Notes under the pieces: generated by a model | Database searches by the model: none | What the model saw: only the letters and a program-made list of their open reading frames with translations | Told to the model about the DNA's origin: nothing | Part shown: positions 4,163 to 23,063 of the stretch, piece after piece | Numbering within the stretch: the stretch's first letter is position 1 | How the letters are laid out: every line of letters starts with the position of its first letter | Assembly (NCBI GenBank): GCA_964632315.1 | Contig: CAZWEM010000056.1 | Location: 1-25,403 of the forward strand | From: an uncultured archaeon | Lineage (GTDB): Archaea > Asgardarchaeota > Lokiarchaeia > Sigyniarchaeales > SOKP01 | Direction: 5' to 3' | Length of the DNA: 25,403 bases | Program-made: the position numbers and the translations under genes

Positions 4163-4806
4163 TATAACAGTCCCCTCCTTGTCTTTTTTAAATAGCTAAG
4201 AGTTAATAAGAACATAATTGCTAATAAAGCAACTATTCCTATCAATATTAATATTAATTCTAATATGGGTCCAGGTCCGTTGGTTTTAATCGTAATATCG
4301 AACTTAACATCAGTCCAGGTACCTCCACCATTATTTAATCCATACACAATTAGCACATAATCTCCCGGAATTGATATCAATGAAATTCCTGAAGTGTCTC
4401 CTGCAAATTCAATATACCAGTATCCATCATATTGGATACTCCTTACATTTGTTGAACTGACCAAATTATTCCCAAAAGCAAATCGCGTATAGACGAAATC
4501 TTCTCCAGTGATTCCACTGGAGGCTGATTCTGCTAAATATGCAGAATCATAAGCTCCCTTTCCTAATATCTTTAGATACGCTGTCACATTCAAATAATTC
4601 AAAGAGAATTCAACTATCAATTTTTGATCTTTTTCAAGGTGAAAAGGGACGCTATACGCTTGTGTTATGTTTGAGTAGCTTTCCTCAGGTATTGTAACAC
4701 CTGTTCGATCGACTAAAGTTATCTTATCAAAAGTAAGACCTAATATGGGGCCTGCTACGATTAAAACGATACTTATTATTAAAAACGCCTTATATTTATT
4801 TTCCAT
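4162..4806 (-). CDS. Hypothetical protein: N-terminal TM/signal, extracytoplasmic beta-rich domain, C-terminal TM; paralog of 5051..5746
   Basis: Hydrophobic N- and C-terminal helices, a basic tail, and motifs shared with the neighbouring ORF (EFS, LKIL, GEDFxY, PGxYVxxVYG, GPG). Confidence 0.78.
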   Translation of the reverse strand: MENKYKAFLIISIVLIVAGPILGLTFDKITLVDRTGVTIPEESYSNITQAYSVPFHLEKDQKLIVEFSLNYLNVTAYLKILGKGAYDSAYLAESASSGITGEDFVYTRFAFGNNLVSSTNVRSIQYDGYWYIEFAGDTSGISLISIPGDYVLIVYGLNNGGGTWTDVKFDITIKTNGPGPILELILILIGIVALLAIMFLLTLSYLKKTRRGLL

Positions 4807-5946: not shown

Positions 5947-6888
5947 ATGGAAGAATATAAATGTGAAGTGCTAATAATTGGATCTGGTCCCGCTGGATTG
6001 GCTGCTGGAGTACACTGTGGTAGATCTAATCGAAATACGATTATATTGAGCGGAAAAGAACCTTCTTCACTTGCAAAAGCAAAAGAAATAAGTAATTGGC
6101 CAGGTGAGAAGGAAATTACGGGTGAACATCTACTAGAAAAATTTAGAAGTCATGCAGCTAATCATGAGACCGTAAGAATTCTGGAGGGTGATGTTATCTC
6201 ACTCATGATTGGAATGGGAATGAACATGATCTCAACAAGAACAGCGAATATTTCATCCGACGTGGTGATTATTGCTACAGGTACTGGTAAAAGAAAAGAA
6301 ATAATAAAAAATGAAAGTAATCTGATTGGTTATGGTGTATCATATTGTGCTCTATGCGATGGTCCTCTTTACAAAGACAGAGATGTTTACTTATATGGAA
6401 ATGATGAGGAATTACTTGAAGATGCGCTTGCGTTGGATCAAATGGGATGCATTGTCCATGTTATTACTCCTGAAAGTAAAGAAAATCTTCCAGATAAAGT
6501 AAATGAATTAATTGAAAGAAAAATTGATGTAATTGACAAGATGGAAATAATTGAAGCTATTTCTGACTCAGATGGTATAATCCAAAAAATATTATGTAAA
6601 CCTATTGATAAGGAAATAACAGAAGAAGAACCCGCAAAAGAATTTGAGTTAAGTTGTTTATTTATTTTTACTCATGTTCCATCTAACTCGATCTTTAAGA
6701 AAGCTGGAATAGAACTGGATGATTATGGAAATGTAAAAGTGGACGAAAATCAAAAGACGAATATTGAAGGCGTTTATGCTGCGGGAGATGTAACAGGAGG
6801 CTTATTTCAGGTTGTTTTCGCCACTGCTGAGGGATCACGAGCAGGAATAAATGCTTGTAAGTATCTTCGCCATCTTAAAAAAGAATAA
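5947..6888 (+). CDS. trxB: Thioredoxin reductase family flavoprotein (low-Mr TrxR), NADPH site degenerate
   Basis: FAD motif IIGSGPAG, IATG, redox motif GVSYCALCDG and TNIEGVYAAGDV. Confidence 0.88.
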   Translation: MEEYKCEVLIIGSGPAGLAAGVHCGRSNRNTIILSGKEPSSLAKAKEISNWPGEKEITGEHLLEKFRSHAANHETVRILEGDVISLMIGMGMNMISTRTANISSDVVIIATGTGKRKEIIKNESNLIGYGVSYCALCDGPLYKDRDVYLYGNDEELLEDALALDQMGCIVHVITPESKENLPDKVNELIERKIDVIDKMEIIEAISDSDGIIQKILCKPIDKEITEEEPAKEFELSCLFIFTHVPSNSIFKKAGIELDDYGNVKVDENQKTNIEGVYAAGDVTGGLFQVVFATAEGSRAGINACKYLRHLKKE

Positions 6889-20295: not shown

Positions 20296-21225
20296 TTAAT
20301 TTTCTCCTTGGATCTCTGAATCAACTTCAGAGTTGTTTGGTTTCGATATAGAAACGTTTAATTTTTGTTCTAAATAAGATATTCTTTTCTCTAGAATTGT
20401 CATTGTTTCGATAATATTATTAATCGCATTATTGATTTCTTTTACTTCGCTTTGTAAATCACCTACTTGATTTAATGTAAATTTCATTACATTTGGTTCT
20501 TTTACCTCTAATAAAAGCCAGTCAATAGCATTTTGTAAAAATTGTTGATTATCAAAAGCATTGATACCAATTTTAGAATCATTTGTAAATATATCAATAT
20601 CTCCAAAAGCTAATACCTTACCTTGTCCATATTCGGTAAATGCAGCTAAAGTTTGTTTTTGTTCTTTTTCTTTTACCCATTCATCTTTAGAGTTATTAAA
20701 GACTTCGGACCATATATTTTTTTCACTAGTTTGAATTAAAGCCCGGGAATCATTATTTAAGAAAAGTGAACAAGTTCCTCCAAAAACTATTTCTCTTAAA
20801 TTATTTATGATTTTTATTTGATTAAAGTCTTTAACGTGAATTATGCTTGATTCTTTTCCATCGTTAAGTTCTTTTATGAGATTTCTCTCAAAAAAGATTC
20901 CAAAATTTTTTCCTGATAAGTCATTTAAATTAGTTTTTTGAAGAAAATCAGCGCCATATTCGCTAATCAACATTAAAGCTCCTCCAGTACGTACAAAATC
21001 GCAAAGTAATTTTATTTCTTGGACAGAGAAGTAATCATCTATTGGATTACCAATTACTATAATATCTATATTTTGAATTCCAAGCTTGGTTAAGCTTTCT
21101 GATTTGTTTATTTTATATCTTAAATTTAAATTCTTTAGAAGGTTTTTAAAATCAGAAAATTCTTCTTCTTCAATATTAAGCATTTCGTTATGACAGAGGT
21201 CGAATAAAATCGTTTTTTCAAGCAT
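20296..21225 (-). CDS. GIFT-domain (IFT52/GldG/DUF4350-like) protein with C-terminal coiled coil
   Basis: Motifs TILFD..HNE, IIVIGNP...FS.QE..L..FV..GG.L, TNLN.L...FGI and YGQGKVLAFGD.DIF.N...N..F..N..DWL. Heptad pattern at about aa 250-290. No signal peptide. Confidence 0.75.
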   Translation of the reverse strand: MLEKTILFDLCHNEMLNIEEEEFSDFKNLLKNLNLRYKINKSESLTKLGIQNIDIIVIGNPIDDYFSVQEIKLLCDFVRTGGALMLISEYGADFLQKTNLNDLSGKNFGIFFERNLIKELNDGKESSIIHVKDFNQIKIINNLREIVFGGTCSLFLNNDSRALIQTSEKNIWSEVFNNSKDEWVKEKEQKQTLAAFTEYGQGKVLAFGDIDIFTNDSKIGINAFDNQQFLQNAIDWLLLEVKEPNVMKFTLNQVGDLQSEVKEINNAINNIIETMTILEKRISYLEQKLNVSISKPNNSEVDSEIQGEN

Positions 21226-21254
21226 TGTTTCTATTACAAATCATAAAAACACTA

Positions 21255-21263
21255 CTATAAAAA
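21255..21263 (-). promoter_or_regulatory. Candidate TATA box for the GIFT-domain gene
   Basis: Minus strand reads TTTTTATAG about 30 nt upstream of ATG 21225, typical of archaeal leaderless or short-leader promoters. Confidence 0.4.
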
Positions 21264-21326
21264 TCAATCTTTTTCTTACCGATTTTTCCACAAGAAATCC
21301 CAAAAAGCAGTGATCTTAATAAAAGG

Positions 21327-21472
21327 AGACTCCTGCCACGTGGACCAAATAAGGTCCTGAAAAATTGTAGGGGGATTCCCCAGTTCCATGAATCTCATGG
21401 ATCTTGGAGGGCGAAATAAGAGTGCGTAACCGCACTACCAAAAGACAAAAATCCAGGGTATGGCAGGAGTCT
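21327..21472 (-). ncRNA. Putative novel structured non-coding RNA (about 146 nt); strand tentative
   Basis: Perfect 12-bp terminal inverted repeat AGACTCCTGCCA (21327-21338) / TGGCAGGAGTCT (21461-21472) enclosing four hairpins. About 48% GC (70/146 by hand count) within very AT-rich intergenic DNA. G-U pairs extend three helices on the minus strand. Confidence 0.65.
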
Positions 21473-21622
21473 TATCTTATATATTGAATTTTTTTCTTTG
21501 TTTTTAGAATATATTATTCCAATCTCATTTAAATATTATTATGAGTTATTGAGTCAGACTTATATTATTGCATTCTATTTAGTCATTTTTGTAAGCAAAA
21601 ATGAATTACTGGCGTCATTCAA

Positions 21623-21638
21623 CACGGATTTTTCCGTG
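21623..21638. promoter_or_regulatory. Inverted repeat CACGGA-N4-TCCGTG upstream of purA (candidate operator or hairpin)
   Basis: GC-rich palindrome in AT-rich DNA, about 110 nt before the purA start and upstream of the TATA-like TTTTTAAA at about 21667-21674. Confidence 0.35.
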
Positions 21639-21722
21639 AATAACCCTTAAATAGCTTAATGTAAAGTTTTTAAATCTTAAAATATAATCTTTTTTGGAAC
21701 TATTTTATCATTTATTTAGTAA

Positions 21723-23063
<1,341 letters not shown>

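Follow-up and report, generated by a model that had tools for sequence, protein, structure and literature searches.

A structured small-RNA family in one lineage of Asgard archaea and its copy between a GIFT-domain gene and purA

The intergenic region between a GIFT-domain gene and purA in this uncultured archaeon contains one copy of what is, on strong support, a conserved structured RNA. The window, i.e. the whole 25,403-nucleotide stretch of DNA that was analysed, carries the element at 21327-21472, with a 309-aa IFT52-GIFT-domain gene on one side (20296-21225, minus strand) and the adenylosuccinate synthetase gene purA on the other (21747-23063, plus strand). Several marks of a functional RNA come together here. 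Each helix covaries densely, one 22-nt joiner does not vary, and the RNA is present almost throughout a single family-level lineage but stops sharply at its limits; a syntenic 'home' copy is accompanied by variable paralogues. Computation very probably assigns the functional RNA to the window's minus strand, and it is rather likely that this is a stand-alone RNA that forms a small ribonucleoprotein and acts in trans, the window holding one of its paralogous copies.

To our knowledge, archaea have few described families of structured non-coding RNA apart from the universal ones, and no such family from Asgard lineages was found in Rfam 15 or in the literature searched. The RNA can be cloned and thus offers a tangible starting point for work on RNA-protein biology in archaea that are related to the eukaryotic ancestor and have not been cultured, and a covariance model of the family would fill a gap in genome annotation.

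Anatomy, covariation and distribution of the RNA

The window element is a GC island, with a GC fraction of 0.45 in 21300-21449 against about 0.24-0.27 in the flanks, in agreement with the rise over AT-rich surroundings described in the initial annotation. Its two ends, 21327-21338 (AGACTCCTGCCA) and 21461-21472 (TGGCAGGAGTCT), are exact reverse complements, so that the perfect 12-bp closing stem proposed there can be read directly from the sequence. The four inner hairpins of the same proposal are likewise all present, namely GGACC/GGTCC (21342-21346/21353-21357), GGGG/CCCC (inside 21370-21381), TCCATGA/TCATGGA (21385-21391/21395-21401) and AGTGCG/CGCACT (21421-21426/21431-21436), but the second and third are not general features of the family and lie inside a 30-nt insertion. 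RNAfold returns these same stems on the plus strand at -63.7 kcal/mol, compared to -38.8 +/- 4.2 kcal/mol for 200 dinucleotide shuffles (z -5.9), and does slightly better on the minus strand (-65.6 kcal/mol, z -7.1); on neither strand did any shuffle reach an energy as low as the real one. Two further elements of the proposed minus-strand fold are likewise not general features. The long helix CCUGGA-UUU-UUGU/ACAA-UUU-UUCAGG, which overlaps the 5' arm of the GGACC hairpin, forms 10 of 10 pairs in the window copy only and 5-8 of 10 in 31 other copies, and the suggested closure of a multiway junction is not conserved.

Read on the minus strand, the RNA folds as a three-way junction in which a closing stem (P1) and two hairpins (P2 and P3) are connected by two long, pyrimidine-rich joiners of about 26 and 34 nt. 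The conserved core of about 122 nt runs in the order P1 5' arm, J1 (ACCCUGGAUUUUUGUCUUUUGGUA), P2, J2 (AUUUCGCCCUCCUCCCCCUAUUUUAUUU), P3, a short joiner, P1 3' arm and NCC-YUUU. In the window, where an insertion extends it to about 150 nt, the whole gene copy with its short U-tail is placed at 21316-21475 by covariance-model matches (111.3 bits with model R1, 107.1 bits with R2), its exact ends being predicted. P1 is formed by the two ends of the RNA and is 10-13 bp long in the family. Here its 5' arm (AGACUCCUGCCA, 21461-21472) is the perfect 12-bp complement of the 3' arm (21327-21338), which is identified by the sequence, by the folds of both strands and by covariation.

The first joiner, J1 (21436-21459), is a U-rich segment of 22-24 nt defined by invariant columns in two alignments (A1 and A3). 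Its invariant stretch, GGAUUUUUGUCUUUUGGU, contains the Sm-site-like AUUUUUG and is unchanged even in the most divergent copies, which score only 26-40 bits; this invariance is partly a matter of ascertainment, because J1 itself adds to the detection score. J1 may close into a small ACC/GGU helix, which is 96% paired across copies, with variants that are mostly G·U on the minus strand (21 wobble cells) and with four double changes. The P2 hairpin that comes next, AGUGCG-GUUA-CGCACU (21421-21436), covaries across the family, where it appears as GUGCG/CGCAC, GUGUG/CACAC, GCGC/GCGC or GGGG/CCCC.

The second joiner, J2, consists of the near-invariant C-rich CGCCCUCCUCCCCC followed by a U-rich run. 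In the window copy, near-invariant columns delimit its first half at 21406-21420 (AUUUCGCCCUCC), a pyrimidine tract that resembles an anti-Shine-Dalgarno sequence, and alignment places its second half at 21358-21375 (UCCCCCUACAAUUUUUCA). Between them lies the 30-nt insertion (21376-21405), made up of the TCCATGA/TCATGGA hairpin and a strand pairing GGGG with CCCC(C). It is found only in the window copy and four relatives (L009-L012), among which its hairpin covaries, and is absent from the other two copies of this genome and from most relatives. P3, GGACC-UUAUUU-GGUCC (21342-21357), is 97.6% paired with double changes at five of its five pairs. No pseudoknot or tertiary pairing could be supported, the only candidates (GGA/UCC) being invariant.

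Beyond P1, homology between paralogues extends for about 30 nt on the minus-sense upstream side and for only about 10 nt on the other, which fits a core promoter travelling with the gene. The upstream block is A/T-rich (21476-21508) and is a candidate BRE/TATA promoter. On the other side, the 3' tail CC-UUUU-AUU (21316-21326) is a candidate oligo-U terminator for archaeal RNA polymerase; a Y-U-U-U at a fixed position after the stem occurs in 52-55 of 76 copies.

Throughout the family the helices vary freely and stay complementary, yet the joiners are near-constant. Across 102 sequences, 91.3% of cells are paired, compared to 76.5% after shuffling and 34-45% when the partners are slid. All 24 modelled pairs show double changes, and compensatory cells number 342 against 72 expected, a count reached in none of 500 shuffles. 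These sequences were aligned to the minus-sense model R2, and the pair figures therefore lean somewhat toward the structure. An independent MAFFT alignment of 32 sequences nevertheless gives the same picture, with P1 97.5% paired. P1 has two segments, for which the family-wide comparison gives 97.7% and 90.8% pairing, with double changes at 10 of 10 pairs; in one copy (L013), the closing stem differs wholly in sequence and is still complementary.

The element was initially annotated as a single intergenic feature. As a feature it is real, but it belongs to a multi-copy family. This genome has three full copies, in the window, on contig 18 and on contig 6, which are 70-83% identical to one another, as well as a fragment on contig 12. 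BLAST matches at E up to 1 occur in 36 of 36 sampled genomes of the genus. Within the family-level lineage to which this genome belongs (f1), model R1 detects the RNA in 120 genomes out of 131 and in 12 of 13 genera, with 1-18 copies per genome. By comparison, only one of 14 genomes of the sister family (f2) has a match, and two further families of the order (f3 and f4) have none with the same model. Phylum-wide, all 25 genomes of family f1 carry the RNA as against none of 125 genomes in 26 other families. Among the genomes searched, the RNA family is thus restricted to a single archaeal lineage of family rank. Metagenomes add at least 119 contigs with an exact match to a 24-mer of the invariant region, among them contigs from marine-sediment sets such as Ga0114925 and SDBS/SDBT/SDBU/SDBV.

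A few outlying matches deserve separate mention. The sole match outside the RNA-bearing lineage, the one in the sister family (G047:C1000:1507-1628, locus L090), lies on a 1.8-kb contig. The metagenome-assembled genome in question is split into about 1,150 contigs, and this one was probably mis-binned. On contig 12 of the present genome (32952-32978; about 1500-1545 of locus L005), the invariant motif CCCUGGAUUUUUGUCUUUU stands by itself in minus sense after a perfect hairpin, UUGGGU-CCCCUU-ACCCAA, and the remainder of the RNA is missing; this might represent a copy that has been truncated, or the smallest unit that still bears the same binding site. Three matches fall on contigs catalogued as viral. 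One is a weak, divergent copy (25.8 bits) at positions 9-135 of L203 (IMGVR_UViG_3300029288_000001, 224,826 nt), whose viral origin is doubtful; the other two are coincidences inside a lysine/proline-rich coding region.

Proposed action in trans

Covarying helices combined with unchanging joiners point to an RNA that acts in trans and has its joiners recognised in a sequence-specific manner. According to this proposal, the gene would be transcribed independently from the window's minus strand, giving a species of 120-160 nt that would start near AUGACUCC and end in the U-tail. The helices would serve as scaffolds only, leaving function to the joiners, and the RNA would act in trans as a small ribonucleoprotein. 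J1 would then be a binding platform for a sequence-specific or U-tract-binding protein, for which Sm-like archaeal proteins are the obvious candidates, while J2 would be exposed so that purine-rich (Shine-Dalgarno-like) RNA or a second protein could contact it. That the RNA is protein-bound is probable. The more specific mechanism, a putative Sm-type partner on J1 combined with a pyrimidine seed in J2, is offered tentatively and is doubtful as a whole.

Several searches bear on the reader of the joiners. When both strands of three relatives, including two single-contig assemblies, were searched for the invariant 17-mer, no further near match turned up, which makes a protein reader likelier than a long RNA duplex. 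LSM-domain genes number 3-4 in this genome, and the same count of 3-4 is found in the sister family, which does not have the RNA. The LSM counts being equal in families with and without the RNA, the idea that the partner is an Sm paralogue specific to the lineage was rejected. Sites complementary to J2 are not enriched near gene starts in a crude test (22 8-mers compared to 18.4 expected, 3 9-mers compared to 4.6). Anti-Shine-Dalgarno targeting was set aside on the basis of this k-mer result, and there is no such site at the neighbouring lipid synthase and membrane-protein genes either. GGAG or GAGG stands upstream of only about 8-9% of crude gene starts.

The boldest form of the proposal is that this relative of the eukaryotic ancestor possesses a lineage-specific Sm-type ribonucleoprotein, in which an snRNA-like molecule would be assembled on an archaeal Sm ring and act in trans. 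An Sm-site-like U-tract between helices and an exposed pyrimidine tract for RNA-RNA contacts would suit such a role. We consider this reading unlikely, if less so than the rival explanations that follow.

Strand, genomic context and rival explanations

The strand assignment draws on a tally in which G·U and A·C mismatches were scored alike, only at positions flanked by Watson-Crick pairs, across 113 unique copies. Neutral decay of DNA repeats should yield about 1:1. Instead, G·U exceeds A·C on the minus strand in each helix, by 44:7 in P1, 17:3 in P2 and 38:5 in P3, for a total of 99 versus 15. Single-sequence folding gives a lower minimum free energy for the minus strand in 67 of 78 copies, and consensus folding of one alignment with alifold gives -25.4 kcal/mol for the minus compared to -18.5 kcal/mol for the plus strand.

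The tally and the consensus energies stand against a plus-strand RNA, which would be A-rich and display a strong Shine-Dalgarno-like GGGGGAGGAGGG, acting either as a decoy for the 3' end of 16S rRNA or as the leader of a tiny ORF. The plus strand does fold well too (z -5.9), some copies have an ATG about 6 nt after GGAGGAGGG, and the T-runs after the element are longer in plus sense, runs of at least five occurring in the plus-sense 3' flank of 29 of 76 copies and in the minus-sense flank of nine. The strand is not settled by these flanking T-runs. In the window copy and many others, ATA or ATC stands in place of the ATG, and the hairpin loops change length without keeping the frame; no ORF is therefore conserved. 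A small ORF behind the plus-strand GGAGG was rejected since its start codon is not conserved, and a 19-codon ORF is not conserved either. The roughly 10 nt of plus-sense upstream sequence conserved between paralogues are, moreover, too little for a promoter. A plus-strand function is thus improbable.

Genomic context also bears on how the minus-strand RNA might act. At 27 of the first 32 loci, and in at least eight genera, the RNA occupies the same position, which we refer to as canonical. A gene for a four-helix membrane protein of about 135 aa is oriented divergently from it there, and in many genera the RNA lies 250-450 nt upstream of and co-oriented (minus sense) with a tetraether lipid synthase gene. 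Contig 18 carries the canonical copy of this genome, and the place of the lipid synthase gene is taken there by a gene for a 92-aa GIY-YIG nuclease that overlaps one for a 271-aa KTI12/PSTK-like kinase (L002, 1697-2768). Other copies sit in unrelated intergenic regions, with downstream genes co-oriented or convergent at about 60:40. The genes next to the copies encode, among others, zf-FCS proteins, small GTPases and a Schlafen AlbA_2 protein; transposases or integrases do not recur among them.

Comparison of orthologous spacers shows the window copy to be a recent arrival through a lineage-specific insertion. The GIFT-purA spacer measures 521 nt here (21226-21746) and 145-192 nt without the element in 28 other genomes of the genus, in all of which the two genes are adjacent and divergent. 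This comparison places an insertion of about 350 nt at approximately 21270-21665, and only about 21313-21508 of it resembles other copies of the RNA. The window copy is most similar (80-86% identity) to canonical copies from four other species, which have the 30-nt insertion in J2 as well; it is less similar to this genome's own canonical copy. The remaining approximately 160 nt of inserted DNA (21509-21665) have no relative in the genome or in the loci compared, and contain a hairpin, CACGG-AUUUUU-CCGUG, at 21623-21638. Next to its ATG, the GIFT gene has its own conserved promoter-like block, both here and in the element-free orthologous spacers.

The initial annotation had left the choice between a stand-alone RNA and a cis-regulatory leader. 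A cis-acting 5' leader, i.e. a riboswitch or attenuator of the minus-sense downstream gene, would control the GIFT gene here and tetraether lipid synthase at the canonical locus. Its appeal lies in the constant canonical position upstream of the lipid synthase gene in many genera, and in the window copy being about 100 nt upstream of the GIFT gene and co-oriented with it. A subset of canonical loci further shows a complementarity that crosses P1 and would allow a switch: 15-35 nt upstream of P1 in minus sense, a 13-mer, AAAUAAAAUAGGG, is the exact complement of the internal CCCUAUUUUAUUU in J2. It is seen, for instance, at L015, L022, L114 and L129, with apparent co-variation as C/G in L019, L029 and L026 and as UUAAAU in L123. 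Its pairing energy is -14.8 kcal/mol with its own partner, compared to -13.2 kcal/mol across loci and -11.9 kcal/mol after shuffling, which is modestly above controls overall. Either this 13-mer forms a pseudoknot or switch, or it is a promoter box that recurs in mirrored form within the gene. As a general feature it was rejected, being absent from the window and contig-18 copies, i.e. also from this genome's canonical copy. Outside the canonical locus, neither a constant position nor a coherent set of co-oriented genes was found: downstream genes are unrelated and roughly 40% of them convergent. The GIFT gene does without the element in 28 relatives and has retained a promoter-like block of its own, and the U-tract comes directly after the stem. 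A leader is therefore disfavoured and seems an improbable role for the RNA, while the unrelated and often convergent genes downstream of dispersed copies favour the stand-alone alternative.

Stand-alone DNA elements of another kind would be MITEs or foldback mobile DNA, whose terminal inverted repeats, here the closing stem, are acted on by a transposase so that the copies are products of transposition. Dispersed copies (1-18 per genome), the lineage-specific insertion in the window and terminal inverted repeats that differ between subfamilies with complementarity kept would all agree with this. One relative has an arrangement of similar flavour. In L198 (genome G132, contig 22), 300-nt direct repeats that are 94% identical (4410-4709 and 6540-6839), each with a copy of the RNA, flank a gene for a 403-aa protein with a Schlafen AlbA_2 domain, and the same genome has tandem copies about 290 nt apart at two loci (L200 and L201); this hints that the RNA gene is a hot spot for recombination or integration. 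Against mobility as the explanation, the inserted window DNA of about 350 nt is not bounded by the stem, and homology between copies runs 10-30 nt past it. An ATCTTA does occur close to the stem on either side, though away from the insertion boundaries, which the diverged orthologous spacers do not fix to the base. Rather than many near-identical dispersed copies with target-site duplications, which the initial annotation had named as the signature of a MITE, there are few copies within a genome (three full ones here), and these are only 70-83% identical. Variable termini around an invariant internal 22-mer are the reverse of the MITE pattern, the strand asymmetry of the mismatches (99 G·U, 15 A·C) is not expected of DNA repeats, one copy is syntenic across at least eight genera, and no transposase recurs beside the copies. 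A mobile-element origin is thus highly unlikely. Least likely of all is a new class of catalytic RNA such as a self-cleaving ribozyme with the invariant junction strands as its active core: the three-way junction of the element, in which the junction nucleotides are invariant while the helices covary freely, and its multiple copies, varied contexts and tandem pairs would be compatible with this, but no Rfam ribozyme family is matched, the joiners are long (about 26 and 34 nt) and pyrimidine-rich with no supportable pseudoknot or tertiary pairing, and nothing else points to cleavage.

Comparison with known RNA classes

The claim of the initial annotation that the element belongs to an undescribed class is supported. 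At the gathering score, Rfam 15 has no match in the whole window and seven related loci, and the best permissive match, YenS, reaches 20.2 bits against a threshold of 80 bits; such sub-threshold matches are noise. ARAGORN finds no tRNA or tmRNA gene in the window, and no description of the RNA family was found in the literature. A tRNA(Sec) or tRNA-related RNA was considered because a KTI12/PSTK-like gene adjoins this genome's canonical copy, and was rejected for want of a cloverleaf in the ARAGORN search. In the genome as a whole, ARAGORN reports a tRNA-SeC on contig 35 and only 11 tRNAs, which makes intron-containing or masked tRNAs likely. The genome's contigs are broken by 26 runs of exactly 100 N, and the 3' end of 16S rRNA was not found in its assembly.

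Ribosomal 5S RNA is similar in its size of about 120 nt, its end-to-end closing helix and its three-way junction. The element differs in having neither the loop C nor the loop E motif, and 5S rRNA was rejected as its identity, with no match to RF00001 on the element at E up to 10. A true 5S rRNA does exist elsewhere in a relative, on the minus strand at G087:C28:194172-194283 (L167, 1501-1612). It is AT-rich, carries the CCAUCC-GAAC and UAGUACUG motifs and scores 32.2 bits compared to a gathering score of 38 bits. RF00001 finds no 5S in this genome or in four other near-complete relatives. The 5S of this lineage falls below the Rfam threshold, and standard annotation pipelines will consequently miss it here. 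Likeness to MITEs and foldback elements is limited to the terminal inverted repeat, the dispersed copies and the insertion in the window, and is countered by an insertion that is not bounded by the stem, divergent copies, an internal invariant part and strand-asymmetric mismatches.

Three further classes of RNA offer parallels. Bacterial and archaeal trans-acting small RNAs with C/U-rich anti-Shine-Dalgarno seeds, such as those of the RsaE type, share an exposed, conserved pyrimidine tract containing CCUCC, a 3' end made of a stem and a U-tail, and a stand-alone gene with paralogous copies. The element differs from them in lacking both homology and an enrichment of complementary sites at gene starts, and in having its most conserved part in the U-rich J1 and not in the C-rich tract, which is altogether missing from one copy in this genome. 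Y RNAs and bacterial YrlA, which associate with Ro60, resemble it in their length of about 100-150 nt, in paired ends that form a long closing stem with a bulge, in pyrimidine-rich internal loops, in a short 3' U-tail and in the presence of several paralogues per genome. On the other hand, the element matches neither Y_RNA nor YrlA in Rfam and has no tRNA-like module. The Ro60/Y RNA pairing was rejected, as no TROVE gene (PF05731) was found in this 99.5%-complete genome, whereas the domain was detected in two control genomes.

The third parallel is with eukaryotic Sm-class snRNAs, including U7, and with archaeal RNAs bound by Sm/Lsm proteins. The element has no homology in sequence or structure to any Rfam snRNA family, its lineage has no lineage-specific LSM paralogue by count, and its tract, the invariant GGAUUUUUGUC between P1 and P2, ends in U and not in a purine and may sit inside the ACC/GGU helix. 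Even so, these RNAs and the element are alike in being small RNAs with a U-rich tract (GAUUUUUGUCU) flanked by helices, a tract that we take to resemble the Sm site RAU4-6GR and the U7 site AAUUUGUCUAG, and LSM-domain genes are present in the genome that carries it.
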